A stretch of DNA of 64,000 bases from an uncultured Gammaproteobacteria bacterium (GCA_964512625.1 CAZEKG010000001.1:127652-191651), one strand, 5' to 3'. Positions 95 to 59,659 are shown, numbered from the stretch's first letter. Notes: a model not told the origin generated them from the letters alone. A program made the numbers and translations.

Positions 95-124
95 TAATTT
101 AAAAAGAGGCTTTTTCAAGCCTCT
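95..124 (-). terminator. rho-independent terminator downstream of the Cys-rich ORF
   Basis: Hairpin AGAGGC-N8-GCCTCT at 105-124, followed by a T-run on the minus strand (A-run 101-104 on plus). Confidence 0.5.
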
Positions 125-461
125 ATTCGATAGTCGAGCCAGGTACCGCCTTACTAGATACCGGATTAGCGAGATAACAGACAACGCACTTGCAGCCATC
201 AATCGAACCGGTTTTCTCCGCTCCACAATCAGTCAGCCGATAAAGCGGCTGATGACAATCACGGCACAATCGGAGAACGATATCCAATCTTTCCGTCGGC
301 GTTCCACAAACCAAACACTTTTCCCGACGCCGGCAAACAGGACTCTTGTCGTCAAAAAACGGAACGCAAACTCTAAATCCGCAATTACGACACACGAAAT
401 CATGATCGCATGACCGACAAGTCTCCTGAATAACCGGTTTCACCTCTTGAATCGTATTCAT
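123..461 (-). CDS. cysteine-rich small protein (16 Cys, several CxxC pairs; zinc-ribbon-like), orphan ORF
   Basis: 112-aa ORF with AGGAGG 8 nt upstream of ATG. GC is visibly higher (~47%) than flanks. Confidence 0.5.
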   Translation of the reverse strand: MNTIQEVKPVIQETCRSCDHDFVCRNCGFRVCVPFFDDKSPVCRRREKCLVCGTPTERLDIVLRLCRDCHQPLYRLTDCGAEKTGSIDGCKCVVCYLANPVSSKAVPGSTIE

Positions 462-499
462 AACTCACGCCTCCTTTTTTAACTCCTCACCACAAAAAG

Positions 500-527
500 A
501 ACAAAAAACTCCGCCTCTTCGGCGGAG
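500..527 (-). terminator. rho-independent terminator of the coiled-coil protein gene
   Basis: Hairpin CTCCGCC-TCTTC-GGCGGAG at 509-527 followed by T6 on the minus strand. Confidence 0.55.
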
Positions 528-648
528 CTCTCTTAGAAATAGAGTATGAGAAAACTAACCGCCGCTTAGCCGGAGCAACAAGCCTAACAACAAGTTTGTT
601 CGCGAAATAGTTTTCATGCTTTAATCTTAAATATTAGAGCTAAAAATG

Positions 649-999
649 TCAAATCTTCTTGAAATTAACCCTGAAGATCGGCTCATATTCATTCTCATAA
701 GCGTCATTAACCTTGACTGTCTCACCTTTCATTAATTGATTGATCGCTAAATCGCTTAACATCTCATTATCCGTATCCAAGTCTATTTTTAAATCATCTA
801 ATTGAGTATATTCACTGGAAAGCTGATGGCGAATCTCCCCTTCGATCTCTTTTTTCTTATCGCGCAACTCCTTTAATTCTTCCTGGATTTTTTTATATTG
901 AACCGAGGAATCGAAAGCATCCCTAATGATTGATTTTATTTCTTTTTGTTTTTTCTTGGTTTCCTGAATGCGAATAAAAACCTCCTGGAGATTAGACAT
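649..999 (-). CDS. hypothetical coiled-coil protein, K/E-rich
   Basis: 116-aa ORF with charged heptad-like composition. Confidence 0.45.
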   Translation of the reverse strand: MSNLQEVFIRIQETKKKQKEIKSIIRDAFDSSVQYKKIQEELKELRDKKKEIEGEIRHQLSSEYTQLDDLKIDLDTDNEMLSDLAINQLMKGETVKVNDAYENEYEPIFRVNFKKI

Positions 1000-1035
1000 T
1001 TATTTTATATGTTATTTATGATTTTTTTAAAAAAA

Positions 1036-2001
1036 TTACCGACTTTCTTCGATTTGTTTGATCCAATTAGCAAAAACTTCCCCTGTTCTCGAATCTGGTC
1101 TCATTCGATGAAGACCGTTAAGATTACCAGCCGATTGCCAAGCGCCAGGCAAAGTCGTAACCGCACCAAGATAGCCAGCGTCAGCCACAATCTTTTTATA
1201 TTCTTCCTTATATCGACCATAAGGATAGGCAAAAGTTTCAACCGGCAATCCAGTTATTTGCTCTAAATCAGTTTTACTATTAGCAATTTCCGTCACCGCA
1301 TCATTATAGCCAATAATACTAAGATCAGGATGATTAAAAGTATGGGAACCAATTTCTACATAACCACTATTAGCCATTTCCTTGACCTGAGCATGAGTTA
1401 GATAACCAGACTGGCCAAGAGCATTAACAATAATATAAAAAGTCGCCTTCATATCATATTTCTTTAAGAGAGGATAAACATTGGTATAAAAATCAAGATA
1501 GCCATCATCAAAACTAAGAGCGACAGTTCTTGGCGGTAAAGCTTGATTCGCTCGGAGGCTTCTTGCGATATCTCTAACAAAAACCGTATTGTATGATAGC
1601 GATTTAAGTTCTTTAAGTTGATTCTCAAAATCAGCCGGCGCAATATATAATCCAGGTAATTTAGCATTCGGCGGAATCGGCTCGACATAATGATAAATGA
1701 AGATCGGCGCCTTAATTGAAAATTTAGACTGATTGCTGTCTTTAATTTTTTCTTCTTTTTTTGTTCCAACTATAACTGGCTGAGTAGTCGTAACTTCTTT
1801 ACTTATTACCGGCGTAGAAGAAACAGCAATAGTGTCGGTTATTCTTTGTTCATTCCAAAGATATTGCTGTTCGATATTTTTTTGACTGCCATTACTGCTG
1901 AAGGATAAACCATACCAATTCTCCAACCAAAAAAAACCGGCCACGGAGACGATAACTAATAAATTAACTGTCAAGATTATATTATTCCTATTTTTTATCA
2001 T
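1036..2001 (-). CDS. polysaccharide deacetylase (NodB-homology domain) with N-terminal TM anchor
   Basis: FDDGY and HTFNHPDL motifs typical of CE4 deacetylases; N-terminal hydrophobic helix. Confidence 0.75.
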   Translation of the reverse strand: MIKNRNNIILTVNLLVIVSVAGFFWLENWYGLSFSSNGSQKNIEQQYLWNEQRITDTIAVSSTPVISKEVTTTQPVIVGTKKEEKIKDSNQSKFSIKAPIFIYHYVEPIPPNAKLPGLYIAPADFENQLKELKSLSYNTVFVRDIARSLRANQALPPRTVALSFDDGYLDFYTNVYPLLKKYDMKATFYIIVNALGQSGYLTHAQVKEMANSGYVEIGSHTFNHPDLSIIGYNDAVTEIANSKTDLEQITGLPVETFAYPYGRYKEEYKKIVADAGYLGAVTTLPGAWQSAGNLNGLHRMRPDSRTGEVFANWIKQIEESR

Positions 2002-3362
2002 ACTTCGTAAAATTTTCCTTCTTCAATAATAACGGGATTGAGTTTTAATTTTTGTTTTATGCCATCAGCCAACATTAAACTTGATTTTTCCTCGCCATGA
2101 CCTATAAAAACAACCTTAGGCTTCGGACTATTTATCTTTTTTAACCAATGAAGCAATTTCGGCTGATCGGCATGGGAAGAATAAGCGCCAATCGCGGAAA
2201 CTTTCGCTTTTACTCTTATCTTTTTTCCTTCGATATTAATTTCCTTATCGCCCCTTAAAAGCCGTCGGCCGAGAGAGCCTTCTGATTGATAACTGATGAT
2301 TAAAAGATGATTTTTCGAACTATCAAGATACTCTTTAAGATGAAAAACCATGCGACCGCCGTTTAACATTCCGCCGCCGGCCAAAATGATCTTCGGCGGA
2401 GGCGTTCGATTGATTTTCTTGCTCTGGGCAACGGTTCTAGTATACTCTAATCCGGGGAATTTGAAAAGGTCATCGCCATCGCGGATTCTTGACCTTGACT
2501 CCTTATCAAAAAAATCATGGTATTTCTCATAAATCCCTATCGCCTCAATTGAAAGCGGGCCATCTAAAAATACCGGCACGGCCGGGATTTGGCGACTCTC
2601 CGAAAGATAATTAAGCTCATATAAAACTTCCTGAGTTCTTTCCAGAGCAAAAACCGGGATCATTAAAACTCCTCCTCGATCAACGGTTTCAAGGATCGCC
2701 TGACGCAACATCTTAACCCGGAGATCGGCCGGCTCATGGATTTTACCGCCATAAGTCGATTCAATAAAAACCACTTCCGCTCCTTTAATGAATTCCGTAT
2801 CCTGAACTACCGGCACAGGAGAATTACCTAAATCACCTGAAAAAACCAACTTTTTTTCCCTTAGGCCTTCCCTAACATAAACCTCAACTATCGCCGAACC
2901 AAGAATATGTCCGGCATCACGAAAAACAATTGAAACATCGGAAGATAATTTTTGTTTTTTACGATATGGCAATCCCCAAAAAAGAGGAAAAACTTTCCTA
3001 ACCTCCCTCTCTCCGTAAAGAGGCGGTAAGCGATATTTCTTAAATTCCTCAGCCATGACCTTAGCGCTATCGAGCATGATAATTTCCACCAACTCTCTAG
3101 TCGGATCAGTAGAATAGATCTTGCCATTAAAGCCCTCGGCGACTAACTTTGGCAACCGAGCGCAATGATCGGCGTGAGCATGAGTAAGAATAACGAAATT
3201 AATCTCTTTAGGATCAAAAGAAAAGGGCTTAAAATTATCCTCACTGGCAAAACGACCGCCCTGAAATATGCCGCAGTCAATTAAAAATTTCGTTTTTTTA
3301 GTTTCCAATAAAATGCAAGAACCGGTAACTTGCTTGGCGGCGCCGTTAAAAGATATTTTCAT
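1998..3362 (-). CDS. MBL-fold beta-CASP family ribonuclease (RNA-metabolising metallo-beta-lactamase)
   Basis: HAHADH motif, C-terminal beta-CASP/RMMBL-like region, 454 aa. Four-nt overlap with the downstream gene. Confidence 0.7.
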   Translation of the reverse strand: MKISFNGAAKQVTGSCILLETKKTKFLIDCGIFQGGRFASEDNFKPFSFDPKEINFVILTHAHADHCARLPKLVAEGFNGKIYSTDPTRELVEIIMLDSAKVMAEEFKKYRLPPLYGEREVRKVFPLFWGLPYRKKQKLSSDVSIVFRDAGHILGSAIVEVYVREGLREKKLVFSGDLGNSPVPVVQDTEFIKGAEVVFIESTYGGKIHEPADLRVKMLRQAILETVDRGGVLMIPVFALERTQEVLYELNYLSESRQIPAVPVFLDGPLSIEAIGIYEKYHDFFDKESRSRIRDGDDLFKFPGLEYTRTVAQSKKINRTPPPKIILAGGGMLNGGRMVFHLKEYLDSSKNHLLIISYQSEGSLGRRLLRGDKEINIEGKKIRVKAKVSAIGAYSSHADQPKLLHWLKKINSPKPKVVFIGHGEEKSSLMLADGIKQKLKLNPVIIEEGKFYEV

Positions 3363-3418
3363 GTCTTAATTATAACAAAACTTTTAACCATAACCAAACA
3401 AGATTAGAAAAATAAAAA

Positions 3419-3982
3419 TCAAAACTTAATCGCTTTCAATCTTCGATTAAGAACGCGATAATTGGGGATTGTCTTAGCGACTAAACTCCAAAACCTTAAG
3501 CTATGATTCATTTCTTTCAAATGGCACAACTCATGAACAATTACTAAATCGGAAATTTCTGGCTCTAAAAAAATTAAGCGATAATTAAAATTCAAGTTAC
3601 CTTTACTTGAACAACTACCCCAAAGACTTGAGTGATTTTTGATAGAAATTCTTTCGTATTTAAAGCCGTAATATTGATTATAATATTCTAATCTCTCTTT
3701 GATATGTTTTTTAGCTCTCGCCCGATAGCCTCGATAACCGATTAACGGACTATAACCCGGAAGATTATTAGGCTTATTGCCAATTTTTTCCATCGCCGAT
3801 ATAACCCAATCAATCTTACTACTAACTAATTCCTTTAAATAACTAACCGTAATCAGCTTCGGCGCAGAAACTACAAGGACCGGACCGGCCTTAACGCTAA
3901 GTCTAATCGATTTTAAGCCTCTCCGGCGGTTAACGACGAATTCTAAATCCCTTTCGCCGATTTGTATTTTCTGTTTCTCCAT
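3419..3982 (-). CDS. YgjP-like (DUF45) metal-dependent hydrolase
   Basis: WGSCSSKG...VIVHELCHLKEMNHSLRFW signature (HExxH) of DUF45/M48-like hydrolases. Lies 9 nt downstream of lexA. Confidence 0.7.
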   Translation of the reverse strand: MEKQKIQIGERDLEFVVNRRRGLKSIRLSVKAGPVLVVSAPKLITVSYLKELVSSKIDWVISAMEKIGNKPNNLPGYSPLIGYRGYRARAKKHIKERLEYYNQYYGFKYERISIKNHSSLWGSCSSKGNLNFNYRLIFLEPEISDLVIVHELCHLKEMNHSLRFWSLVAKTIPNYRVLNRRLKAIKF

Positions 3983-3991
3983 GCCTTAAAC

Positions 3992-4660
3992 TTAAAATTG
4001 AAAGGAAGGGGACAATTGGTATTTAAGAACATCAACTACTTTGCCATTAATAACGAAATCATCGCTTGGGGTTAGGAAAATCGGCTGATGTTTTTTATTT
4101 GTTGATTGAGGTAAAAGCACGATAGTTTTCTTATCTATTTTCTTAAAAGTTTTAACCGTCGCTAAGCCGTCGATTACGACTAAAACCTTATCGCCGTCTT
4201 TAAATACCTTAACTTCCGGATCGACAATAATAAAATCGCCGTCTTCGATCCGCTTATTATTTATTACGGAAAGATTCATTGAATCGCCACTAACCTTAAC
4301 AGCGAACAAGTTAGACTTCTTAAAAAGATTCTTGGAAATCTTAAGATAGCCTAAAATATTCTGTTCCGCCCAAAAGAACGGACTACCGGCGCTAGCCGTT
4401 CCGAAAATCGGTAAATCGATAAACGATTTTTTATCAAAAGACTTGAGCTGAGTACCTTTTTTGGTCGGGATACGAGAAACTAAACCTTTCTCTTCAAGCG
4501 ACTTAAGATAAAGAAAAACGCTACGAGTACTTTTTAGCTTAAGCCCGAGCTCAGAACATTTATCCTGAAGCTCGCGAACCTTAGGCATCCGCCCAATATC
4601 GGCGGAAAACTCCTTGATGGCTTGCAGAACTGTTTTCTGCTTTGGGGTTAAGACTTTCAT
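3992..4660 (-). CDS. lexA: LexA repressor (wHTH + S24 peptidase)
   Basis: N-terminal LexA wHTH, Ala-Gly cleavage site (TASAGSPF), and C-terminal Ser/Lys S24 domain (VSGDSM...K). Confidence 0.85.
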   Translation of the reverse strand: MKVLTPKQKTVLQAIKEFSADIGRMPKVRELQDKCSELGLKLKSTRSVFLYLKSLEEKGLVSRIPTKKGTQLKSFDKKSFIDLPIFGTASAGSPFFWAEQNILGYLKISKNLFKKSNLFAVKVSGDSMNLSVINNKRIEDGDFIIVDPEVKVFKDGDKVLVVIDGLATVKTFKKIDKKTIVLLPQSTNKKHQPIFLTPSDDFVINGKVVDVLKYQLSPSFQF

Positions 4661-4809
4661 ATTGTTTACTTATGTTTCATATCTTGTTTAATTATATCAT
4701 CGGGGGATTACCCTGGCAAGACTAAGTTATCAACAGGCCAATTAAATGAATTAAAACAAAAAACCTCGCTCTATTTAAGCAAGATTTTTTTCTCTCCTAA
4801 AATATTACT

Positions 4810-5328
4810 TTAAGCGATCGCGGCTACTGTCGAAATAATTTGATCCGGTTCCTCAAGATCGTAATCGGAAATAAAGTTATCCACTCCCGCCTCTTCAAAA
4901 TCTCCCCCATTCTTACCAATACCGACAACCTTGCCTGAAAAATTAAACTTATTCAATTCCCTAACAATTTCAGAACCCTCAACCCCTTCTGAAAGCGTAT
5001 CGCTAAGAATCACCATATCGGAATTAGAACTTAAGATATATTCTACTAAATCGCTCATATCTTCGCCGTCATACTTAAAGAATTCCGCCTTACCCTCGGT
5101 AGCAGCCAATAATTCAGGAATTAAGGATTTTAAAACCTCGATTAAATCCGTAACCAACAAGACTTTCTTATCCCTTAAAGAATCCCATTCCGGCAAGGTT
5201 TTCGGAACTTCTCGGTATTTAACCGCTTCGTCGCCTAAAAGGGTTTTCATTTTTTCATTAATCTTAGCTAAAATTTCTGATTGGGTCGCTCTACCTTCAG
5301 CTCCAAGCTCGGCTTTAAAATGACGCAT
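4810..5328 (-). CDS. hypothetical protein with a degenerate CheY-like or Rossmann-like C-terminal half
   Basis: 172-aa ORF. A weak alternating beta/alpha pattern (KVLLVTD, MVILSD, KVVGIG) suggests a receiver-like fold. Confidence 0.35.
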   Translation of the reverse strand: MRHFKAELGAEGRATQSEILAKINEKMKTLLGDEAVKYREVPKTLPEWDSLRDKKVLLVTDLIEVLKSLIPELLAATEGKAEFFKYDGEDMSDLVEYILSSNSDMVILSDTLSEGVEGSEIVRELNKFNFSGKVVGIGKNGGDFEEAGVDNFISDYDLEEPDQIISTVAAIA

Positions 5329-5390
5329 ATTTGATAAAATTATTTTCTTTTACGCGTTCATTATACTCCTTATCTTCGAGTTTGACAATA

Positions 5391-5421
5391 AACTAAAAAC
5401 CTCGCTTTTTAAAGCGAGGTT
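5391..5421 (-). terminator. rho-independent terminator of the DEAD-box helicase gene
   Basis: Hairpin AACCTCGC-N8-GCGAGGTT followed by a T-run on the minus strand. Confidence 0.55.
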
Positions 5422-5451
5422 TTAGCTATTTTAAGACTTGAAAATCTTTAA

Positions 5452-6753
5452 TTAACGGCGCTTTCTGCGAGGAAAATCGCCTGGTCGTCTTGACCGGCCT
5501 GACGATCGATTATAACCGCCCGCTCTTGGGCTACTCGAACGGCCATAACCTTCGCGAGAACCGCCTGAACGGCCATACCCGCCCCTAGGACTAACGGAAA
5601 CCGCCTCGACTACCGGAGGTCGGCGTTTAGGCAAAGTTGGTAAATCGTGGATTGGAATCTTAACCTTAATCAGCCTTTCAATATGCCTGACATCATATAA
5701 TTCCGTCGGAGCAATAAAAGAAATAGCTTTGCCTGATTTTCCAGCGCGGCCGGTTCGGCCAATGCGATGGACATAATCCTCGGGATTATCCGGCAAGTCA
5801 AAATTAATAACTAAAGAAATATTATTAACATCAATACCCCGAGCGGCGATATCGGTTGCAATTAAAATACGATAAGCTCCTGATTTAAAACCGCTAAGCG
5901 CTTCTTTACGTTGGCCGAGAGAAAGATTAGAATGCATTTCCGCGGCAGTATAACCCATAGCGCGAACTTCGTGCATGATTTTCTTGGCGCCGTATTTAGT
6001 TCTTGAAAAAACTAAAACTGAGCCTGGATGATCTTCTAAAAGCTTTTCCAGTAACTGCATCTTATTATCTTTGCTAGCTACGAAAGCTTTTTGGTCAATA
6101 TTGGCCGCCGGCAATCCCGGAGGCGCTACCTCGACTCGAAGCGGAGTTTTCATGAAAGTTGTTGCGATCTGAGCGATAGCGTGAGGCATAGTCGCGGAGA
6201 AAAGCAAAGTTTGCCTTTCCTGGGGAGCTTGGCTCAAGATTTTCTTGATTTGAGGCATGAAACCGATATCAAGCATCCGATCAGCCTCATCAAGAACGAC
6301 AATACTAACTTTATTAAGACTAATATTTTTTTGATTCATGTGGTCATCAAGCCGGCCCGGAGTCGCAACAATTATATGTGGATTACGCTTAATCATCTCT
6401 AATTGGCGATACATAGAAGCGCCGCCGATTAAAATTGCCGTCTTAAGACCGAATTCGCGACCGATTTTTTGTAAAACCTCATCAACCTGAAGAGCTAACT
6501 CCCTAGTCGGTAAAAGGATTAGGCCTTGACCTTGACTCTCAGAAAGTCGTTGAAGCATAGGAATGCCAAAAGCTAAGGTTTTACCCGTACCTGTTTGAGC
6601 GATACCAACGACATCCTTGCCCTCAATAGCCAAAGGAATAACCCTGGCCTGAATAGGAGTCGGCTCACTGAATTGTTTTTCGAGAACCTTTAAAAGATTC
6701 GGAACAATGCCAAGCTCGTTAAAAGCTGGCACTTTTTGTTTGTTTTGTGTCAT
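5452..6753 (-). CDS. DEAD-box ATP-dependent RNA helicase with C-terminal RGG/Gly-Arg-rich tail
   Basis: Q-motif, GTGKT, DEAD, SAT, and HRIGRTGRAG motifs. The C-terminal R/G-rich tail gives local GC elevation. Confidence 0.9.
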   Translation of the reverse strand: MTQNKQKVPAFNELGIVPNLLKVLEKQFSEPTPIQARVIPLAIEGKDVVGIAQTGTGKTLAFGIPMLQRLSESQGQGLILLPTRELALQVDEVLQKIGREFGLKTAILIGGASMYRQLEMIKRNPHIIVATPGRLDDHMNQKNISLNKVSIVVLDEADRMLDIGFMPQIKKILSQAPQERQTLLFSATMPHAIAQIATTFMKTPLRVEVAPPGLPAANIDQKAFVASKDNKMQLLEKLLEDHPGSVLVFSRTKYGAKKIMHEVRAMGYTAAEMHSNLSLGQRKEALSGFKSGAYRILIATDIAARGIDVNNISLVINFDLPDNPEDYVHRIGRTGRAGKSGKAISFIAPTELYDVRHIERLIKVKIPIHDLPTLPKRRPPVVEAVSVSPRGGYGRSGGSREGYGRSSSPRAGGYNRSSGRSRRPGDFPRRKRR

Positions 6754-6912
6754 ATTTTTTTATTTGTGACCCATATTCCAGTTGAGCCACATCAGTAATG
6801 ACACAAAAAAGGTTAGAGTCGCTAAACGCCTTAAATAGCGCTAGGATTATTAAATCTCTTATATACTATCATAAATGATATTTTTTGTCAACATCTGACC
6901 AAAATATCCCCA

Positions 6913-8367
6913 TTAAACCTTACTTAAATCTAAATACTCGTCAATTCTGATTTCTTTGACAAAATCGGGCATATGACTGACTAAAAGCATCGCTCCTTCG
7001 TAATTATTGATCGCCTCGGCAATAACCGGAATATGGCGGAAGTTGATATGATTGGTCGGCTCATCAAGGATAAGAAGTCCCGGCTTCATTAAGACTAAGC
7101 GAGCGAAAGATAATAAGCCTTTTTGACCCTCGGATAAATCCCCTACCCTATTACCCATTAAATCGCCGGTAATTAAAAAGCTGGCTGCGACGGCGCGCAT
7201 GTTTTGAATATCGATAATATCATCGTTAATAGAAGCCTTAAGCGAATCGAAAACCGTATCCTCAAAATTAAGATTAGAGAAATCCTGACTGTAATAGCCG
7301 ACAATAACGCCTTCGGTAATCTTTGCTCCTTCCGACTCCCCGGAAACCAGCGTTCTTAAGAAAGTGCTTTTCCCAATACCGTTAGGACCTTCGACTAAGA
7401 CATGCTTATTCTTCCTAATTGTTAAATCAACCTCTTTAACTAAAGGCAGATGATCATAAAAAGATAAAATGGAACTTATTTTTACGACATCCGTAATGAC
7501 ATTTTGAGCCGGAATACGGAATTTCCTAATCGTCTTATCCTCTCTTCGGACATCGACCATATTCTCCTCAAGTTCTTCAGTTTCTTCCTTAAGTTTCTTA
7601 GCCAGCTTTCTCATCTTACCTCCCTTGTTAGCGAAAAAATTGACTTTCTCCTTACGGTCGCGGATCACTTTTTCAGCTCGGGCGTTTTCCATCAACTCCC
7701 TTTCAATTCGCTTGCTGATTTCCTCGACAACCGAATAATAATCGCCAACATAGCTTTCAATCTTATGCTTAAAAACATCAAGATAAATAACGCCGTCAGT
7801 AAAGCAGTTTAAGAAGTCGGCGTCATGGGAAATAACAATAACTGTCTTATCATACATGACTAAGAATTGAATTAAATGGTCGATTCCGGCTTGATCAAGA
7901 TTGTTAGTCGGTTCATCAAGCAGTAAGATATCGGGATCCTGGACTAAAGCGAAGGCAAGGAGTAGTCGCGCTTGTTGACCGCCGGAAAGAGCCGCTACTT
8001 TGCGATCATAAGCGACATTAAGATTGACCGCCTCAAGAACTTTATTGATCCTACTTTTTATATTGGTCGGCACAACCTCAAAGGCTTTAGAAAAGTATTC
8101 CTCCACATTAAGCTCAAGATCTTCGCGAGCAATTACCTGGCGAGCCGTTCCGATCGTCGCATTATTAGTTATATGGATACTACCCTCTTTAGGTTTTAAC
8201 TTGCCAAGGATAAGATTAAAGATCGTTGTCTTGCCGGCGCCGTTTTGACCCATTAAAGTAACCTTAGAACCCTTGCGAATGCTAAAACTTGCCTCGTCAA
8301 GGAGAGGTTTTTTATGAGCATATTCAAAAGTAACTTCATCAAACCTTAAGACAACTTCTTCCGCCAT
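6913..8367 (-). CDS. ABC-F family ATPase (two tandem ABC domains, no TMD)
   Basis: Two Walker A sites (GQNGAGKT, GPNGIGKS), two signature motifs (LSGGQ, LSEGQ), and an inter-domain linker. Confidence 0.85.
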   Translation of the reverse strand: MAEEVVLRFDEVTFEYAHKKPLLDEASFSIRKGSKVTLMGQNGAGKTTIFNLILGKLKPKEGSIHITNNATIGTARQVIAREDLELNVEEYFSKAFEVVPTNIKSRINKVLEAVNLNVAYDRKVAALSGGQQARLLLAFALVQDPDILLLDEPTNNLDQAGIDHLIQFLVMYDKTVIVISHDADFLNCFTDGVIYLDVFKHKIESYVGDYYSVVEEISKRIERELMENARAEKVIRDRKEKVNFFANKGGKMRKLAKKLKEETEELEENMVDVRREDKTIRKFRIPAQNVITDVVKISSILSFYDHLPLVKEVDLTIRKNKHVLVEGPNGIGKSTFLRTLVSGESEGAKITEGVIVGYYSQDFSNLNFEDTVFDSLKASINDDIIDIQNMRAVAASFLITGDLMGNRVGDLSEGQKGLLSFARLVLMKPGLLILDEPTNHINFRHIPVIAEAINNYEGAMLLVSHMPDFVKEIRIDEYLDLSKV

Positions 8368-8477
8368 TTTTTTTATGATTAAATATGATATTAAAAACGC
8401 ATATTATTGCGTCTGGAAAAGATTACTGATTAACTTTTGCATGATAACAGATTTCCGCTCTTTTGTCCATTCCCGAG

Positions 8478-9293
8478 CTAAAGCCAAGCCCTAATAAGGC
8501 CGGCGGTCGTTTTTGGCTTCTCAAGAACAACCACATGACCGGCATTGCTAACTAATTTAAAATCAGCTCCGGGCATCCGATCAGCCAATTCCTTAACCGA
8601 CTTCCAGGGAGCGATTTCATCGCGATCGCCGGCAATGACTAAAGCCGGATTCTTAATTTTATCCGCCAGCGCGTATAAGTCTGATTGATAAAAATCATTG
8701 AACATATCAATACTGATTTGGGGGTTTAAGCGATCAAGTTCTCGATTACTGTCGGCAATCAGCTTTTTCCGTCTTTCTGGCCCGGAGGATTTATAAATAA
8801 TAAGATTGCCGGCTTGGCGATACAGCTTATTATAAAGCCAGGGTTTTTTTAAGCCATTAGGCAATTTATCCGCTATTAAATATTCCAAAGCGGCTAACTG
8901 AGCAATAAAACCTTCGACTCTTAAAACTGGCGTTATTAAGACGGCTTTAGAAATCCGCTCGGGATACTGGCTACTAAAACTCAAGGCTAAACGAGCGCCG
9001 AATGAATGGCCAATTATTTTTACCTTATTAAGGCCTATCTCCTTAAAAAAAAGATCTAACCAACTAACATATTTATCAAGCGAATGCTGACCATTTAACG
9101 GAGCTGATTCTCCACATGAAGGCATATCAGGAATAATAAGCCGATAATCATCCAATCCCCTGGCTAAGTCTAAAAGTCCGCCATGATTGCCGGGAAAGCC
9201 ATGGAGTAAAAGAATGGTTTCCGGTTTATTAGGATTTTTCTCCCAATAATGAAACTCCCCTTCGTTTATTTTTATAGTATTTTTTTTAAACAT
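8478..9293 (-). CDS. alpha/beta-fold hydrolase
   Basis: HGFPGN oxyanion region and GHSFGA nucleophile elbow. Confidence 0.75.
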   Translation of the reverse strand: MFKKNTIKINEGEFHYWEKNPNKPETILLLHGFPGNHGGLLDLARGLDDYRLIIPDMPSCGESAPLNGQHSLDKYVSWLDLFFKEIGLNKVKIIGHSFGARLALSFSSQYPERISKAVLITPVLRVEGFIAQLAALEYLIADKLPNGLKKPWLYNKLYRQAGNLIIYKSSGPERRKKLIADSNRELDRLNPQISIDMFNDFYQSDLYALADKIKNPALVIAGDRDEIAPWKSVKELADRMPGADFKLVSNAGHVVVLEKPKTTAGLIRAWL

Positions 9294-9420
9294 GATTACT
9301 TCCGATTATTTCTTCTTCATTTTAGCTTAAATAATGATAAATTTCAATTCAAGGGAATTAAAAGAGGGGCGTCCATATCAATGGATCACCCCTTGTATTT
9401 CTCTGTCTGGAAGGAGCTCC

Positions 9421-9825
9421 TTAGGCGAGGATTGCTCCAATCAAATTTCCGTCGAAAAGACCTCCGGAATTGCAGAGCTCCGGTTTGGGCTCCCAATAGA
9501 ACTGGTAGTCCTTGGCGACGCCGAAACTTCCGGCATTGTTCGGAAGAAGGTCTTGGAAGTGACGTCGGCATTCCATCCAGAACAAACCGTTGACAAAATC
9601 GCTTTGCTCCCTCAAATCCTCAAGAACTTGTCGCGCCCTCTCTCCAAGAGCCTTGACCTCTTTGATGCTGTCGATCGCATCGAGCTCTTCCTGAAAGCGC
9701 TGCTTCGTCGCCCGCAACTCTTCACCCAAATACCTCCGAAGCGCGAACAGACGCTTCAGGCGGTCAGGAAGAACGCCGATGACAGTCTGGTTTTCTTCGA
9801 GTTCTGACAGCGGTCCCTCGACCAT
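9421..9825 (-). CDS. hypothetical protein, GC-rich orphan ORF (cassette a)
   Basis: 134-aa ORF in a ~600-bp block of ~50% GC. The overlapping plus-strand ORFs have poorer protein-like composition. Confidence 0.45.
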   Translation of the reverse strand: MVEGPLSELEENQTVIGVLPDRLKRLFALRRYLGEELRATKQRFQEELDAIDSIKEVKALGERARQVLEDLREQSDFVNGLFWMECRRHFQDLLPNNAGSFGVAKDYQFYWEPKPELCNSGGLFDGNLIGAILA

Positions 9826-9946
9826 CTCCAGGTCGATAGCTTCCGCACGCTCGAGTAACGTCTCAACAAAAAAAGAAGCTTCATCACAATTCCTCCGACT
9901 TTGAGTTAAGGGACAACCGCTGGCCTACTTACCAGCAGCACCCAAT

Positions 9947-9975
9947 ATTGTAATATATAATAAAAAAAATGTCAA
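9947..9975 (-). promoter_or_regulatory. sigma70-like promoter TTGACA-17-TACAAT driving cassette a
   Basis: Read on the minus strand: TTGACA (9970-9975), 17-nt spacer, TACAAT (9947-9952). Confidence 0.5.
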
Positions 9976-10043
9976 GGTTAATGACAAAAATATTTAAAAT
10001 AAGATAAAAAATACCAGAAAATTACCAATTTATTAATGCAGGC

Positions 10044-10760
10044 TCATCTTATCCTTAACATATCAAAGAATATCTTACTAAAATCCCTTAATCTTAGCTT
10101 GCTATTATTTTCATTATGCCAATTAACCCCTATTTGTTTAATATCAATGCCGGCTTGGCCGTATAAGTAAAGCATTTCCACATCAAAAACCCAACCAGTT
10201 ACTTTTATTTTCGGAAAGATTTTCTTTGCCATCTCCGCTCGGAAAACCTTAAAGCCGCAACCGAAATCGCTGATATTCTTAAGCCCGGTAACAAGCCGGG
10301 AAAATAAAACATACGCCGAACCGACTTGGCGCCTTAGCCATCCTTGGGGCTTTATTAAGTTTGAAGTCTTTAATTTTCTTGAGCCGATGATAAGCTCATC
10401 GCCGGCGAGAATATTAGGAATAAACTTTTCAATCTCTCTAAGGGGCGTCGACATATCCGCATCCGCCATCAAGATATAATCCATACCGGCGAGAGAAACG
10501 CCGTACTTGATCGCCGAGCCCTTGCCTTGATTGATTTCATAGCCGGCTAAGCGACAATCGATCTCCGGATGAGCTTTTATAAAATCATTTATTTTTAAAA
10601 CCGTCTTGTCCGTACTACCGTCACTAACGAAGATGACTTCGAATTTATTGAATAATTGGGAGTTATAAAAGCTCAATATCTCATCAAAGGAAATATTTAT
10701 TCTCTTTTCTTCATTATAAACCGGAATTATTATGCTTAAGCCGAGAGATTCCATCTTCAT
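10044..10760 (-). CDS. family 2 glycosyltransferase (DPM1-like)
   Basis: IIIPVYNEE and DAD motifs of GT2. Confidence 0.8.
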   Translation of the reverse strand: MKMESLGLSIIIPVYNEEKRINISFDEILSFYNSQLFNKFEVIFVSDGSTDKTVLKINDFIKAHPEIDCRLAGYEINQGKGSAIKYGVSLAGMDYILMADADMSTPLREIEKFIPNILAGDELIIGSRKLKTSNLIKPQGWLRRQVGSAYVLFSRLVTGLKNISDFGCGFKVFRAEMAKKIFPKIKVTGWVFDVEMLYLYGQAGIDIKQIGVNWHNENNSKLRLRDFSKIFFDMLRIR

Positions 10761-10906
10761 ATCCTGCCCATAAATTCCATATCAAACCTTAAAGTAGTAT
10801 TTGAGCTAATCTTATCATTTAGATTAAACAAAAACAACCCAGGATGGGCTGTTTTTTGAAGTTATTAGCTCTTTAATAGAGTTTTCTATCTTTATTACCC
10901 TTACGC

Positions 10907-10935
10907 TTTACAATCACAACCTATTGTAATAATAT
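10907..10935 (+). promoter_or_regulatory. sigma70-like promoter TTTACA-17-TAATAT upstream of dut-dcd fusion
   Basis: Hexamers at 10907-10912 and 10930-10935. RBS AGAGAGG lies 7 nt before ATG. Confidence 0.5.
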
Positions 10936-10993
10936 GTAACCGTAGCGATTCCAAGCGTGTCCTTTATGTAAATACGAAAAGAGAGGTATTCTC

Positions 10994-12031
10994 ATGAAAA
11001 CGATTCAAGTAATTAGACTCTTCGAAGACGCCCAAACTCCGGTAAGAGCCAGTAACGGCGCGGTCGGTTTCGATGCTTTCGCCTACGGCGTGCTTGATGT
11101 GGAAACCAAGGAATACAAGGAAGGCGAGAGCTTGCCATTTACCCTCAATCCCGGCGAGAAGGTCCTCATCGGCATTGGCGTCGCTTTTGCCTGCCCCTGG
11201 CCGATCGAGTGCCAAGTAAGGCCAAGAAGCGGCTTAGCAAACAAGTACGGCATCGAACTAGGGAATTCTCCCGGCACCATCGATCCGGATTTCCGTGGCA
11301 ATGCGGGAGTATTACTTCGCAACCGCAGCGAGGATCCTTTCGTCATTACGAAGGGTATGCGAATCGCCCAGCTGGTCTTCGCGGAAGTTGAAATTCCAGT
11401 TTTCGAAGAAGTCGCAGTACTCCCAAAAACCCGCCGCGGCGCCGGAGGCTTCGGATCTACCGGCCTCCTACAGGTAATCGAGGGAACGGAAGAGTACCAA
11501 AGGCACCTTAATGAACAGGATACCTTCTATATGAGAATGGCCATCGCTGCCTCCGATCGCTCCAATTGCGTTCGCGGATGCCAAAAAGACAGCGACGGAC
11601 ATTACCGGCTTGACGAGAAAGGAAAGCTCATCGGACAAACGAGAAAGTTCGGTTGCGTGATCGTAAAAGGAGATAACGTCGTCTCCTTCGGCTATAACGC
11701 CCAAGCGCCCGGCCAGCCTTTGTGCTCGGAGGTAGGCTGCATGCGGGAAGATGAGGGCATTCCTTCCGGTTCAAGAATCGAACGATGCCGCGCCGTCCAT
11801 GCCGAAGAAATGGCTTTTTTGAAAATGCTGGCGAGCGGAGTGGCCGCCTCAACGATAGGCGCGACCATGTATGTTACCGCTGAGCCGTGCGAAGTCTGCG
11901 CTAAGTCCATTGCCGGCTCAGGCATAGACACGCTCGTCGTCCTCGAGGGAGTCTACCCTCAGAACGGCCTTCAAATCGTCAAAGACGCGGGCGTCAATGT
12001 GCGATTTGTAAGTAAAGAGGCTGTAGCCTAA
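10994..12031 (+). CDS. bifunctional fusion: N-terminal trimeric dUTPase + C-terminal zinc-dependent dCMP deaminase (ComEB/DCTD family)
   Basis: dUTPase motifs RSGLANKYGIELGNSPGTIDPDFRGN, GMRIAQLVF, RGAGGFGSTG. Deaminase motifs CSEVGC, HAEEMA, PCEVCAKSI. GC ~55% against a ~38% background. This is the only plus-strand gene among minus-strand neighbours. Confidence 0.85.
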   Translation: MKTIQVIRLFEDAQTPVRASNGAVGFDAFAYGVLDVETKEYKEGESLPFTLNPGEKVLIGIGVAFACPWPIECQVRPRSGLANKYGIELGNSPGTIDPDFRGNAGVLLRNRSEDPFVITKGMRIAQLVFAEVEIPVFEEVAVLPKTRRGAGGFGSTGLLQVIEGTEEYQRHLNEQDTFYMRMAIAASDRSNCVRGCQKDSDGHYRLDEKGKLIGQTRKFGCVIVKGDNVVSFGYNAQAPGQPLCSEVGCMREDEGIPSGSRIERCRAVHAEEMAFLKMLASGVAASTIGATMYVTAEPCEVCAKSIAGSGIDTLVVLEGVYPQNGLQIVKDAGVNVRFVSKEAVA

Positions 12032-12042
12032 ACAAAAACACA

Positions 12043-12072
12043 GGCGGAATCAAAAAATGATCCGCCTTTTTA
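12043..12072 (+). terminator. rho-independent terminator after dut-dcd fusion
   Basis: GGCGGA-N12-TCCGCC followed by TTTTT. Confidence 0.6.
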
Positions 12073-12739: not shown

Positions 12740-12740
12740 T

Positions 12741-27958: not shown

Positions 27959-28081
27959 AAATATATTTTAACCTAAAATAAAATGTTTTAAAAGCATTAG
28001 GTTGACAAATTAAAATTAAAAGGTAATATTTAGATTGCCTTAACTCTTATATAATGTCACCACAAGGAAGGAGAGCTGGTC

Positions 28082-28611: not shown

Positions 28612-28653
28612 TTAAGAAAAATAAAAAGCGCCAAACGTATTACGCGCTTGACG

Positions 28654-30309
28654 CTAGACAGTCGCAACGACAGCGGCAACTCTTTCGAGGTAGCCGTCCT
28701 CGTCAACACGCAGTTGCTTAGAATCGATAAGACGGTTAATGGCCGACTGAATAGCCTTGACCATCAAACCATCCTTCATATTCAAAGGCAACGCGTAGCC
28801 TTCGAGGTTTCTTGCCTGCCTTAAACGGTTTACCACCTCGCCTCTCTTGAGATATACCTTGTCAGCCGAGGCTCGATCGATAATCTGTAAGACAGCCGCT
28901 TGCCAATCCTCCGGCGAATCAATGAGCTTCCGGCCGTCTTGGTAGAATTTACCTTTAGCCGAACCTTTATCGTAGAAGGACCTATTAATGGCGTCCTTCC
29001 CCGACTGAGGGCCTCGAGCTATCCTTTCGTCATCCAAGACGACAAGGTAGTTTTCCTTTTCCAAGGCGACTAACTCATTACGAAGATGATTCTCGACATT
29101 AGTATCAGAGAAAGTCGAGATATCATAGCTGAAGTAAGGAGCTGAAGATTTCGCTTTCTCCGTCACTCCCTCAAAAGTCAGGGTGTAGCCGGACTTCTCA
29201 AGAATACCCAACAAGATCTTTTGCCAATCTTCACTGGCAACAGGATACTTCAAAGGACCTTGAGGTGGCGCCGGACCGTGATTCTTTTCACGCCCCTGGG
29301 GATTTCTTCGCCCCGAGGCATCATCATCAGAGCCATCCTCGGCAGTTACGTATTCGCCGACAATACTCCTTAGCTTCTCGCGTCCCTTGGTGGTCAAATC
29401 GTAACAACCAGTAACAGGATCGCGTCTCAGCAGTTCCGCCTTACTCGAACCGTAGTTGAGCTGTTGAGTTATCGTCTTATTATCGAAACGTGGGTTGGCT
29501 TTCAGTGCTCGAGTGATATCATCGCGACTCATCGGACCCCGAGTAAAAACAGTAAGCAACTGATCGATAAGCTTCCCGGATTTCCCGGTCTTGGCTCGCC
29601 GATGAGATGCTTGCAATTGCGCCAAACGATCTTCGCGGTTAACTGACCGGCCATTGCCGGATTCAGCCTTTTCTTCCCGCAATTGAGCCTGGAGCTGTTG
29701 TTTGCACGTAACCTTCTGAGCGCTATCGACGGCTCCCGATTCAGCTCCTGTCTCTTCCGCCCGATGCCACTTGCGGTCAGTCCTACCGATACGACCGCTT
29801 TTTTTCAGTTTCAAAAGAGCCTGATAAACAGCGCCTTCGCTGTTCCCAACCTCTGAAGCAACTTCTTTAGTCGTAAACCCGCGTTTCGGTCCGCGACGGC
29901 TGACAATCTCGACGAGCTTATCTGATTTATCGTTCCGCTGTCCGCCCTTCGGCTTTTGGTTTGTAGCCGTTTCCTTGGAAACAGCCCGCCCATTGCCTTT
30001 CGAATCCGAGGTAGCTTTTTCCGGCAATTCAAGAATCTCTAAATCTCCTCTCGACTGAGAAGGAAGCAAGGCAAGATTTTCCTGCGCCTTCCTGGTAATA
30101 GCTTCGGCCTGCGCCGAAAGCTTCCCGGCATTTTCGATCTGCTTCCGATTTAGATCGTGAACCAAATCAAAAAACCTGCCGGTAAAATCCTTCCGATCCT
30201 CCTCGCTCAGACCCGTCTCCGGATCAATGCTGTGAACATCGGAAACCAAGACTGCCCCATCCTTTGGAAGAACAACCGCCAAGAAATTGCTTATTACCTG
30301 ACTTTCCAT
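28654..30309 (-). CDS. hypothetical protein with several winged-helix-like repeats, GC-rich orphan ORF (cassette c, gene 2)
   Basis: 551 aa with ~52% GC. Three or four segments have wHTH-like periodicity, separated by charged low-complexity linkers. Confidence 0.5.
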   Translation of the reverse strand: MESQVISNFLAVVLPKDGAVLVSDVHSIDPETGLSEEDRKDFTGRFFDLVHDLNRKQIENAGKLSAQAEAITRKAQENLALLPSQSRGDLEILELPEKATSDSKGNGRAVSKETATNQKPKGGQRNDKSDKLVEIVSRRGPKRGFTTKEVASEVGNSEGAVYQALLKLKKSGRIGRTDRKWHRAEETGAESGAVDSAQKVTCKQQLQAQLREEKAESGNGRSVNREDRLAQLQASHRRAKTGKSGKLIDQLLTVFTRGPMSRDDITRALKANPRFDNKTITQQLNYGSSKAELLRRDPVTGCYDLTTKGREKLRSIVGEYVTAEDGSDDDASGRRNPQGREKNHGPAPPQGPLKYPVASEDWQKILLGILEKSGYTLTFEGVTEKAKSSAPYFSYDISTFSDTNVENHLRNELVALEKENYLVVLDDERIARGPQSGKDAINRSFYDKGSAKGKFYQDGRKLIDSPEDWQAAVLQIIDRASADKVYLKRGEVVNRLRQARNLEGYALPLNMKDGLMVKAIQSAINRLIDSKQLRVDEDGYLERVAAVVATV

Positions 30310-30470: not shown

Positions 30471-30477
30471 TTCTTTG

Positions 30478-30549
30478 TAGCCCCACGGAGAATCGAACTC
30501 CGGTTCTCGCCTTGAGAAGGCGGTGTCCTAGCCACTAGACGATGAGGCC
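30478..30549 (-). tRNA. tRNA-Glu (anticodon CTC)
   Basis: Manual cloverleaf: acceptor GGCCTCA/TGGGGCT (two G-U pairs), D-arm GTCT/GGAC, anticodon loop TTCTCAA, T-arm CGGAG-TTCGATT-CTCCG, discriminator A; no encoded CCA. Confidence 0.75.
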
Positions 30550-40849: not shown

Positions 40850-41038
40850 AGAGTGTGGGGCTAAGGACTAGGAAACAGTACCTTAAAAATAATAAATTTA
40901 ATTACAATTACTTTGGTTACTAGTTACAAGTTGCTAATTTAATTATCTTATCATTTTAATCTTTTTTCGGCAAAATAAAAAATCCCTCGTCTTCCGGGCA
41001 CTCAAGCGTCAAGGAATCCAAGGGATTAAGTCAAGCCG

Positions 41039-41774: not shown

Positions 41775-41803
41775 TATATATCATTTATTGATCTTTTTGT
41801 CAA
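41775..41803 (-). promoter_or_regulatory. consensus sigma70 promoter TTGACA-17-TATATA driving cassette d
   Basis: Minus-strand hexamers at 41798-41803 and 41775-41780. Confidence 0.55.
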
Positions 41804-58908: not shown

Positions 58909-58976
58909 AATTAATAGTTATTACTAGTTAGGGTATTTTATCAAAAAGACCCTAAAAATGCAACTTTTGTCAAATA

Positions 58977-59000
58977 TAAAAGCCGATCTGTTTAGATCGG
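58977..59000 (-). terminator. terminator downstream of cassette e
   Basis: AGCCGATCT-GTTT-AGATCGGCT followed by a T-rich run on the minus strand. Confidence 0.55.
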
Positions 59001-59222
59001 CTAGTCATGCCCGTAAAGACGGTATTGACCCGTCTTCTCATCAAGACTCAAGCGGGCATCTTCCCTGAGAACCTCGAGGCGTCTTGTGACTTCCTCTAGC
59101 TCAAGAAAAATGCCTCCGGCGGCCAGTTTGCTGGCGACTTGCTCCGGAGAAAGACGAACCGTCTTCCTCGTAAACAAGTTAAACCAAATCACTCTATAAG
59201 CGGGTCTGGTAATAAGACTCAT
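59001..59222 (-). CDS. hypothetical small protein, GC-rich (cassette e, downstream gene)
   Basis: 73 aa. Start overlaps the upstream stop by ATGA. Confidence 0.45.
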   Translation of the reverse strand: MSLITRPAYRVIWFNLFTRKTVRLSPEQVASKLAAGGIFLELEEVTRRLEVLREDARLSLDEKTGQYRLYGHD

Positions 59223-59560
59223 GCCACCTTCTCTCCTTCGGCTCGCTCCCTAATGCAAAAACAGAGGAGGGCGCAGCACTTATTGCTTCGCCGACTGCCA
59301 AAGCCCTCGAGTTCCAAGGTCCCGGACTCCATATCGATCCAATTGACGATATGAAACTCTCTCGTCAGGTCGTGAAGGACTAGCGACCCTTCTTCGATCT
59401 TCTGAGACGAGATCCAATCTAGTCTTTTCCTAATCTGCTCTCCTCGCGGATCTGAGAGTCTTCTCGCTTCCTGCCGATGCTGTTCGCCGATTACTTCATC
59501 AGCCAGCCGGCCAATCTCTCTCCCCCGAAAATGCCGGAATCTTTTCCCCATAGTTGCCAT
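59219..59560 (-). CDS. hypothetical small protein, GC-rich (cassette e, upstream gene)
   Basis: 113 aa, Arg-rich N-terminus, ~50% GC; RBS GGGG. Confidence 0.45.
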   Translation of the reverse strand: MATMGKRFRHFRGREIGRLADEVIGEQHRQEARRLSDPRGEQIRKRLDWISSQKIEEGSLVLHDLTREFHIVNWIDMESGTLELEGFGSRRSNKCCALLCFCIRERAEGEKVA

Positions 59561-59613
59561 GATTGCTTTTCCCCTTTTACCCTTCGATTGAATGTACTAC
59601 TACCCTAAAAACT

Positions 59614-59659
59614 AAAAAAGTGTACTTTATATAGTAACACTTTTTTAAAATAATTGCAA
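59614..59659 (-). promoter_or_regulatory. promoter TTGCAA-17-TACTAT with overlapping 10-bp inverted repeat (operator-like)
   Basis: Minus-strand -35 at 59654-59659 and -10 at 59631-59636. AAAAAAGTGT-N13-ACACTTTTTT (59614-59646) spans the -10 and the transcription start. Confidence 0.5.

Follow-up and report, generated by a model that had tools for sequence, protein, structure and literature searches.

How do genes of unlike composition come to lie singly between the housekeeping genes of a small bacterial chromosome? The question is raised by a 64,000-nucleotide stretch of a metagenome-derived contig of 284,256 bp (GCA_964512625.1, CAZEKG010000001.1:127652-191651), called the window throughout, in which six blocks holding eight protein-coding genes stand out by their guanine-plus-cytosine (GC) content. 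An original prediction, made from the sequence, took them for phage-moron-like cassettes from one donor pool or, alternatively, for one dispersed accessory system. It was partly supported: the composition of the blocks is foreign and shared and the units are autonomous, whereas phage affinity and the absence of recognisable families did not hold up. The best explanation, to which we give a probability of about 0.6, is that the blocks were acquired by separate horizontal transfers, one or two genes at a time, from a Patescibacteria pool of about 51% GC. Three of the genes belong to families confined to Patescibacteria-type genomes, and one of these, in block 5, is probably an orphaned target of a diversity-generating retroelement (DGR).

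A shared foreign composition

The window has a GC of 0.401, and its genes are densely packed and mostly on the minus strand. Gene GC has a median of 0.400 with a standard deviation, based on the median absolute deviation, of 0.026, and the top native gene reaches 0.452, leaving a gap below the block genes. The eight open reading frames (ORFs) of the six blocks have GC of 0.481-0.544 and third-codon-position GC (GC3) of 0.45-0.62, with robust z of +3.1 to +5.5, and lie between flanks of 0.31-0.40 (Table 1), a contrast that the original prediction had seen by eye. ORFs at least 0.08 over the median make up 8 of 66 (12%) in the window versus about 3-4% in low-GC relatives (P about 1e-3).

The codon-usage and composition statistics that had been proposed as checks also set the blocks apart. 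The GC-normalised dinucleotide relative-abundance distance (delta*) between the pooled blocks and native sequence is 136, against 35±11 (maximum 81) for 300 draws of size-matched native segment sets, and each block is nearer the other blocks than native sequence, whereas native segments behave oppositely. Synonymous-codon log-likelihood ratios, calculated leave-one-out, give z of +1.7 to +5.4 for the block genes; for example, TAC takes a share of 0.59 of Tyr codons in blocks versus 0.19 in native genes, TTA 0.06 versus 0.36 of Leu codons and AAG 0.63 versus 0.42 of Lys codons. In the encoded proteins, Arg, Gly and Cys are over-represented and Ile, Lys and Asn are scarce. Pooled GC at the three codon positions (GC1/2/3) is 0.581/0.409/0.544 in blocks versus 0.470/0.334/0.394 in native genes. 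The Muto-Osawa and Lawrence-Ochman regressions relate codon-position GC to genomic GC, and they turn the block values into 50.8, 52.6 and 51.2% genomic GC. This mutual consistency suggests little amelioration, although the resulting value of about 51% is approximate, native genes of this genome fitting the regressions poorly.

Expression-linked codon bias was rejected as a source of this pattern. Among genes of the highly expressed type, GC3 is 0.254 in L7/L12, 0.378 in L31 and 0.351 in TypA, and because ribosomal-protein genes are this low (L7/L12 above all), expression-driven bias is unlikely. Adenine depletion of the coding strand, considered as a side effect of DGR activity, is not common to the blocks (A 0.21-0.28, T 0.20-0.31). 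Structured RNA in place of protein was also set aside: no Rfam family was found in the blocks, and codon-position GC, ribosome-binding sites (RBSs) and the annotation of the source record favour coding.

A similar excess was seen in the locus of the closest TypA relative (L091, 80% identity), where 5 of 22 ORFs are GC outliers at 0.48-0.58 against a median of 0.385. Two of these resemble real orphan proteins, and two others look spurious, lying over a GC-rich segment that possibly codes for RNA. The outliers suggest that the GC-outlier trait is concentrated in the lineage of the window and this relative.

A Patescibacteria-type host

The window encodes core cellular proteins, including SecA (1139 bits to the equivalog), HPF, MurB, MraZ, TsaB, TypA/BipA and the diadenylate cyclase CdaA, together with L31, a class-1 release factor (PCRF and RF-1 domains), and L10 and L7/L12 preceded by an L10 leader; its two tRNAs each stand alone. 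The neighbours of the blocks are SecA/HPF, CdaA/tRNA-Glu, TsaB/MraZ, a glycosyltransferase and a hydrolase. SecA relatives were sought in 185,579 species genomes; loci examined in the analysis as a whole, 174 in all, carry L numbers. The top SecA matches are metagenome-assembled genomes (MAGs) with small chromosomes, at 74% (L001), 65% (a chromosome of 516,640 bp) and 61% (886,192 bp) identity, and lower-ranked matches are MAGs labelled Patescibacteria, Kazan, Saccharibacteria and Nealsonbacteria. Because of this core gene set and these relatives with tiny chromosomes, the window is assigned to a cellular chromosome of Patescibacteria or candidate phyla radiation (CPR) type and not to a phage. 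Every protein tested, SecA included, is a singleton at 90% identity.

The two closest SecA relatives (L001 and L002, one of which has an 886-kb chromosome) are titled 'uncultured Gammaproteobacteria', and their gene content and synteny fit this Patescibacteria-type genome; judged by these features, they are probably mislabelled. In L085, the chromosome of 516,640 bp, the genes for the PheRS alpha subunit and thymidylate kinase each appear as two short ORFs (4219-4929 and 11095-11713), which suggests either long-read-type frameshift errors or pseudogenes.

Families and a variable slot

Curated libraries (Pfam, NCBIfam, PHROGs and PADLOC) recognise only the block 3 domains among the eight genes, and to this extent the proteins do lack recognisable families. 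In raw sequence space, however, three of the eight (blocks 3, 4b and 5) fall in families confined to Patescibacteria-type genomes. Their homologues, wherever named, come from Patescibacteria or Parcubacteria, and their contexts are non-syntenic. Of nine family-genome pairs outside the window, three have a native-like GC3 and the remainder exceed their hosts by a wide margin (up to +0.28); such a spread within families is expected for transfers of different ages. Several relatives have 47-57% GC (L002-L006), and so suitable donors exist within the phylum.

The intergenic slot between HPF and SecA, which holds block 6, was observed to vary among relatives. In L006 it is a 75-bp gap. In L001, where the flanks are collinear from g63721 to L7/L12, its content is an unrelated 169-aa ORF with native GC, and it contains an unrelated 180-aa ORF in L002 and 2.4 kb with two genes in L008. 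Block 6 is lineage-specific cargo in a variable slot. The synteny comparison thus informs this slot, empty in one relative and with unrelated cargo in three, and not the others.

Block 5 and diversity-generating retroelements

Block 5 encodes a 217-aa protein with 69 homologs at 36-68% identity, all 'hypothetical' (Parcubacteria, Buchananbacteria and Andersenbacteria). In all three genomes looked up (L171, L172 and L173, at 56, 48 and 49% identity), the homologue is followed by an opposite-strand bAvd gene and an RVT_1 reverse transcriptase (RT) within 1.5 kb. A repeat lying 310-440 nt downstream matches the final ~123 nt of the homologue, and of the mismatches 16/18, 18/18 and 22/23 fall at template adenines. 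Adenine-specific mismatches between template repeat (TR) and variable repeat (VR) are the defining DGR signature, and because they occur here together with Avd and RT, the 217-aa family is identified from its sequence and gene context as one of DGR variable (target) proteins.

The window holds a target of this kind and, within the searches made, none of the other parts of a complete local DGR. The last 200 nt of block 5, compared with the whole window by word-7 blastn, match only themselves, whereas the same method recovers the TR/VR pairs of L171-L173. The window ORFs with a Pfam or NCBIfam annotation, a set that does not take in every window ORF, include no RT, and no bAvd gene adjoins block 5, which has TsaB downstream and a 777-bp ORF-free gap upstream. 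DNA-level homology to the DGR loci spans the VR and the downstream hairpin, and foreign TRs align to block 5 only in a drifted 3' segment, at about 60% identity. A proxy template was built from the columns where the three foreign TRs agree (24 adenine and 70 non-adenine). Active VRs have changed at 14-17 of the 24 adenine and 1-2 of the 70 non-adenine columns, and block 5 at 15 and 22, respectively, an adenine bias with Fisher p = 0.014; block 5 also reads 'AR' where the scaffold 'VW' is near-invariant. An adenine-biased footprint plus ordinary drift is what the segment would show once overwriting from a template had ceased. Block 5 is probably a solo, orphaned DGR target, and less probably a remote one; the usual arrangement in CPR DGRs is one target alongside, and certain DGR lineages act on targets at a distance (PMC5758913). 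Among known systems, DGRs and their variable proteins (the C-type-lectin-fold Mtd and TvpA, and those of CPR DGRs; PMC5758913, PMC8144416) are the closest, and block 5 has kept the C-terminal segment and the post-VR hairpin of its homologues in L171-L173. The product would bind a ligand, and adenine-specific mutagenic retrohoming would once have rewritten the C-terminal ~120 nt of its gene.

Both neighbours of block 5 have features of their own. The ORF-free gap contains an element of ~264 nt (42096-42359) bounded by nested inverted repeats with outer arms of 16 nt (94% complementary) and inner arms of 26 nt (96%). It folds into one long hairpin (minimum free energy -126.9 kcal/mol; shuffled sequences -74.4±5.1, z = -10.2). 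Only one copy occurs in the window, and no Rfam family matches it; it could be an element resembling miniature inverted-repeat transposable elements or a structured RNA of an unknown kind. The TsaB gene directly downstream (40451-40849, minus strand) encodes just 132 aa and covers positions 2-93 of the 212-position TsaB model, and it may be a truncated or minimal form.

Block 3, a predicted dUTPase-dCMP-deaminase fusion

The block 3 protein matches PF00692 at residues 48-157 (E 3e-24; 85.5 bits, cutoff 22) and PF00383 at residues 215-317 (E 1e-17; 64.2 bits, cutoff 25), and it exceeds the cutoff of the NCBIfam dut model NF001862 (132 bits, cutoff 103). From these domains it is predicted to be a dUTPase fused to a deoxycytidine monophosphate (dCMP) deaminase domain of ComEB/DCTD type, and is called Dut-Dcd below. 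dUTPase and dCMP-deaminase activities both give deoxyuridine monophosphate (dUMP) for thymidylate synthesis; the fusion would supply dUMP for the synthesis of deoxythymidine monophosphate and keep deoxyuridine triphosphate low. The two-domain architecture recurs in 3,513 homologs, of which the best are 80% identical and the named ones come from Patescibacteria or Parcubacteria, and the neighbours of the fusion differ from genome to genome. In L085, the orthologue adjoins thymidylate kinase and thymidylate synthase, a context that supports the predicted role in dUMP supply.

The fusion shares with Dut a trimeric-type dUTPase domain, and with ComEB/DCTD dCMP deaminase a predicted zinc-dependent deaminase domain of the cytidine deaminase fold. 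Like the bifunctional dCTP deaminase-dUTPase DCD-DUT, it would combine two routes to dUMP, although DCD-DUT is a single-domain enzyme and block 3 a two-domain fusion. A literature search turned up no paper describing a fusion of Dut with dCMP deaminase. GC of Dut-Dcd genes versus their host loci is 0.572 versus 0.435, 0.491 versus 0.403 and 0.398 versus 0.340, and GC3 is native-like in L083 (0.423) and L085 (0.319) and far above the host in L081 (0.646) and the window. We note that L081 also encodes, 3.5 kb from its GC-rich Dut-Dcd gene, a 210-aa Gly/Ala/Arg-rich protein (5908-6540) with a signal- or lipobox-like N terminus, no Pfam family and a GC of about 0.6 in a locus of 0.435.

Block 4b, a sparse family of multi-winged-helix proteins

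A word-index search found no relatives of the 551-aa protein of block 4b, and an exhaustive phmmer search over 1.84 billion representatives found seven distant matches (E 1e-8 to 7e-4). In six of the seven the alignment covers most of the protein, and these have in common an N-terminal module, repeats resembling winged helix-turn-helix (wHTH) domains and a C-terminal 'DW...W.LTF.QL' module. An AlphaFold2 (AF2) model has a predicted local distance difference test score (pLDDT) of 58 overall, with confident wHTH units at residues 350-435 and 460-545, and a Foldseek search with it returned generic winged-helix domains only; a fold assignment more specific than winged helix was rejected on account of this poor model. 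The protein probably binds nucleic acid (DNA or RNA), as judged from the modelled units. Its relatives are lone GC-rich genes amid housekeeping genes, with GC versus host of 0.537 versus 0.354 (L089), 0.474 versus 0.333 (L174) and 0.470 versus 0.426 (L086), and GC3 ranges from native-like in the 544-aa homologue of L086 (0.426) to far above the host in L089 (0.585).

Block 4 lies directly 3' of the tRNA-Glu gene and is the one block of the six with a tRNA beside it. A GC-rich gene at a tRNA 3' end also occurs in L089/L090 (tRNA-Ser beside a 589-aa homologue) and in L081 (tRNA-Ser beside Dut-Dcd), and the family members in L086 and L174 have no adjacent tRNA. Block 4 resembles tRNA-linked integrative islands in this position and differs from them in spanning just 2.2 kb, in having no integrase and no duplicated tRNA 3' segment (no repeat of the tRNA-Glu 3' end was found at the far side of the block), and in those two off-tRNA relatives.

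Orphan genes and transcription signals

The ORFs of blocks 1, 2, 4a, 6a and 6b have no family in Pfam, NCBIfam, PHROGs or PADLOC, and no relatives were detected in the searches made. Block 1, annotated in the source record, encodes a 112-aa protein with about 18 Cys, several in CxxC pairs, behind a strong AAGGAGG RBS; its Protein Data Bank (PDB) matches are zinc-ribbon-like and marginal (E 0.1 or worse), and from its sequence it is probably a small zinc-binding protein. Block 2 is a 134-aa ORF of uncertain start; it is the annotated product of the source record, and the overlapping plus-strand ORF is not. Its best RBS (GGAGG, 9893-9897) serves an out-of-frame 42-codon ORF (ATG at 9884; 9759-9887, minus strand) that overlaps the annotated start at 9825, whose ATG has a poorly spaced GGAG, and the conflict could reflect an assembly frameshift, a leader peptide or a mis-called start. 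Block 4a encodes a 166-aa protein with a strong RBS and no PDB relative. Block 6 is a two-gene operon: the 113-aa 6b comes first and its stop overlaps the start of 6a (ATGA), a 73-aa protein whose best match is sub-threshold (PADLOC JetA/DUF2397, E 0.002).

The original prediction gave each block, where the sequence could be read, its own promoter and terminator. A hairpin followed by a T-run terminates every block unit, and the four promoters it quoted are all present, that of block 6 being weak (8/12). A fifth was found upstream of 4a, and none that is convincing upstream of 4b. These signals do not mark the blocks out: native genes are flanked by equally good promoters and terminators (for example, at 5388, 4719, 40347 and 30563), and autonomous transcription is thus a property of the genome. 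Orientation is as described at the outset, with blocks 3 and 4a on the plus strand in a mostly minus-strand region and 4a and 4b convergent. The promoter-like site at 652..624, which may or may not belong to block 1, overlaps the stop of the upstream gene, and two hairpins then intervene before the block 1 RBS. One of them, with a T-run (533..503), may be the terminator of the upstream gene or an attenuator-type leader.

The 116-aa gene at 649-999 lies near and upstream of TypA in many relatives (L091, L095-L098, L102 and L103; 57-64% identity), and directly adjoins it in L095-L098. In the window 14 kb separates the two, and because of this difference in spacing the region 1-16,600, which holds blocks 1-3, is taken to be rearranged with respect to those relatives.

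Table 1. Positions of block genes, their signals and related features (window coordinates unless another locus is named)
Feature	Position	Strand	Details
Block 1 gene	123-461	-	GC 0.481, GC3 0.451
Block 1 promoter-like site	624..652	-	TTGACA-17-TAAGAT; assignment to block 1 uncertain
Block 1 terminator-like hairpin	105..124	-	With T-run
Block 2 gene	9421-9825	-	GC 0.533, GC3 0.622; GC1/2/3 0.63/0.35/0.62
Block 2 promoter-like site	9947..9975	-	TTGACA-17-TACAAT, 11/12
Block 2 imperfect hairpin	9355..9393	-	With T-run; read from sequence, missed by scan
Block 3 gene	10994-12031	+	GC 0.544, GC3 0.598
Block 3 promoter-like site	10907..10935	+	TTTACA-17-TAATAT
Block 3 hairpin	12043..12071	+	GGCGGA...TCCGCC with T-run; read from sequence, loop exceeds length used by scan
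Block 4a gene	28082-28582	+	GC 0.487, GC3 0.563
Block 4a promoter-like site	28002..28029	+	TTGACA-16-TAATAT
Block 4a terminator	28586-28605	+	
Block 4b gene	28654-30309	-	GC 0.502, GC3 0.518
Block 4b terminator	28617..28655	-	Back to back with 4a terminator
tRNA-Glu(CTC)	30477..30549	-	3' end faces block 4, 167 bp from 4b start
Block 5 gene	41039-41692	-	GC 0.498, GC3 0.500
Block 5 promoter-like site	41775..41803	-	TTGACA-17-TATATA; read from sequence
Block 5 hairpin	40972..41027	-	With T-run; position conserved with post-VR hairpin of DGR loci
Block 5 VR-equivalent 3' segment	41048..41167	-	Drifted
Block 6a gene	59001-59222	-	GC 0.500, GC3 0.527
Block 6b gene	59219-59560	-	GC 0.526, GC3 0.570
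Block 6 promoter-like site	59631..59659	-	TTGCAA-17-TACTAT, 8/12, weak; read from sequence
Block 6 terminator	59002..58981	-	
HPF-SecA intergenic slot	58909..59672	.	Holds block 6; variable among relatives
Complete DGR, L171	8001-10534		
Complete DGR, L172	8001-10425		
Complete DGR, L173	8001-10584		
GC-outlier ORFs, L091	14235-15017, 15376-15891, 3444-3785, 781-1218, 9381-9881		

Origin of the blocks

We infer that the eight genes would have entered a 40%-GC CPR chromosome singly or in pairs, from a pool that circulates among Patescibacteria. Each unit would have landed in an intergenic slot between housekeeping genes and would be transcribed on its own, with a sigma-70-like promoter (except 4b), a Shine-Dalgarno-type RBS and an intrinsic terminator, and the genes would be functionally unrelated to one another. 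The shared signature is compatible with one donor pool, as first proposed. HGT (horizontal gene transfer) islands and DGRs are already known in CPR bacteria. In a published survey of 125 Patescibacteria genomes, islands and singly transferred genes are reported to number in the hundreds, to stem mostly from exchange within Patescibacteria and to take up as much as 13% of a genome (PMC12455944). The blocks are like these in atypical composition, in their streamlined CPR genome and in the frequent lack of recognisable mobility genes; they differ in being defined gene by gene with one GC-normalised signature in common, and in that the families of three of them have a GC above that of the host in all genomes examined.

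Several observations weigh against such transfers. As the original prediction stated, the blocks have no integrase, transposase or att repeat in their vicinity, and no conjugation gene was found either. No donor sequence was identified, all eight block proteins being singletons at 90% identity, and the 51% GC ascribed to the pool is approximate for the reason given above. Only one of the six slots (HPF-SecA) is testable by synteny: in 80 TypA-anchored loci (65-80% identity), the genes around TypA show no conserved order and include no cassette homologue, which makes these loci uninformative for blocks 2 and 3. Between the window and the 516,640-bp chromosome, Dut-Dcd is 61% identical and SecA 65%, values compatible with vertical descent and showing no incongruence, and the GC excess of Dut-Dcd is partly family-intrinsic or driven by amino acids: two other genomes show an excess of +0.06 to +0.09 although GC3 there is native-like. 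The GC offset is positive in all nine family-genome pairs outside the window (+0.04 to +0.18) and negative in none. DGR target genes have GC of 0.534, 0.552 and 0.485 versus 0.456, 0.388 and 0.389 for their host loci, and in L171-L173 only the target gene is GC-rich (0.485-0.552; GC3 0.52-0.67, with 0.670 in L172), over its whole length including the non-VR two thirds, whereas Avd (0.35-0.37) and RT (0.34-0.43) are at or below the flanks (0.39-0.46). Transfer of whole cassettes cannot explain this target-only excess, which needs either target swapping, the fastest-changing DGR feature according to Wu et al. (PMC5758913), or a gene-intrinsic cause; the excess is not described in that DGR survey.

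These offsets lead to the main rival, which we regard as unlikely: that the families stay GC-richer than their hosts through constraints on the genes themselves, which would perhaps be long-term residents. Candidate constraints are amino-acid content, avoidance of adenine or of certain codons, mRNA or DNA structure, and GC-biased gene conversion in often-recombining genes. The consistently positive offsets, the GC-rich target beside ordinary Avd and RT genes, the excess of Dut-Dcd even where GC3 is native-like (L083 and L085), and the bias of block proteins towards Arg, Gly and Cys and away from Ile, Lys and Asn would all be explained. However, GC3 and the GC-normalised dinucleotide signature are shifted too, and alike in unrelated genes; within a family, GC3 runs from native-like to +0.28 over the host, which a fixed constraint does not predict; no adenine depletion of the coding strand is common to the blocks; and for the five of eight genes with no detectable relatives, conservation cannot be invoked.

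A more speculative idea, and to us a more doubtful one, is that unrelated Patescibacteria families, among them the DGR variable proteins, the multi-winged-helix proteins, Dut-Dcd and small orphans, hold a common ~50% GC and dinucleotide signature whatever the GC of the host, with the target alone showing it inside DGR cassettes. This would point to an unseen common vehicle or a gene-specific process that raises GC. The vehicle could be a CPR extrachromosomal element or virus of about 51% GC that repeatedly delivers single genes to chromosomes and exchanges the targets of DGRs; the process might be GC-biased conversion, for instance, at loci prone to recombination or retrohoming.

Separate transfer also has to be set against origin as phage morons or as prophage or plasmid remnants, that is, as cargo left after a mobile element decayed, which is improbable. 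Morons are likewise autonomous promoter-gene-terminator units unlike their surroundings in composition, and the blocks are self-contained in this way. Block 4 sits at a tRNA 3' end with the same geometry in L089 and L081, dUTPase and dCMP-deaminase domains are common in phages, and DGRs are often phage-borne (PMC5758913). The window also encodes a 277-aa protein (33509-34342, minus strand; GC 0.403, as in native genes) with a BRO-N domain (E 1e-10), which is usually associated with phages or viruses; this was the sole phage-flavoured gene noticed. However, morons by definition lie inside a (pro)phage, and the flanks of the blocks are cellular housekeeping genes. A megablast search of 20000-44000 against 50,697 phage records gave no nucleotide match, the seven unknown proteins (concatenated tblastn) had no match in phages or plasmids, and three proteins scanned against IMG/VR had no relative there. 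PHROGs matches were confined to the Dut/Dcd domains, and the best phage match to the fusion is 28% identical across both domains versus 80% in Patescibacteria chromosomes. There is no att repeat or integrase, and L086 and L174 lack the tRNA adjacency.

The proposal of one dispersed accessory system, in which all eight genes would cooperate, say as multiple targets or partners of a single retroelement or defence system, is very improbable. It could draw on the common compositional signature and on block 5, which lies in a DGR target family while some DGR lineages use remote targets (PMC5758913). Yet the block proteins are not similar to each other, no window repeat matches the 3' end of block 5, homologues of different blocks do not co-occur within ±8-10 kb in the 174 loci, and the CPR DGRs of the same survey usually have one adjacent target. 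A defence system was rejected, PADLOC having given noise-level matches only. An artefact of chimeric assembly or mis-binning, placing higher-GC fragments in a low-GC contig, might be suspected of a metagenome-derived contig whose proteins are all singletons but is scarcely credible, since the blocks are bordered by the starts and stops of genes, within AT-rich spacers that carry promoters, RBSs and terminators, flanking synteny is intact at SecA, and homologous genes in independent assemblies (ENA, JGI, NCBI and Logan) show the same phenomenon.

Implications for Patescibacteria genomes

The analysis adds annotations to this part of the tree: a probable orphaned DGR variable-protein gene (41039-41692), a predicted Dut-dCMP-deaminase fusion found phylum-wide, and a sparse family of multi-winged-helix proteins whose genes stand as GC islands in several genomes. 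With block 5, an unannotated Patescibacteria family gains a predicted role as DGR variable proteins, together with a likely example of a target that lost its retroelement, and the predicted fusion is a common, uncurated enzyme architecture in the phylum. A small unexplained regularity also emerges: DGR targets, and not their RT or Avd genes, exceed the host in GC, and members of the two other families do so too. CPR/Patescibacteria genomes are tiny and were long thought closed to gene flow. Foreign gene-sized units lying between core genes, self-contained and with no mobility genes beside them, would show where and how such genomes gain functions without recognisable mobile-element machinery.

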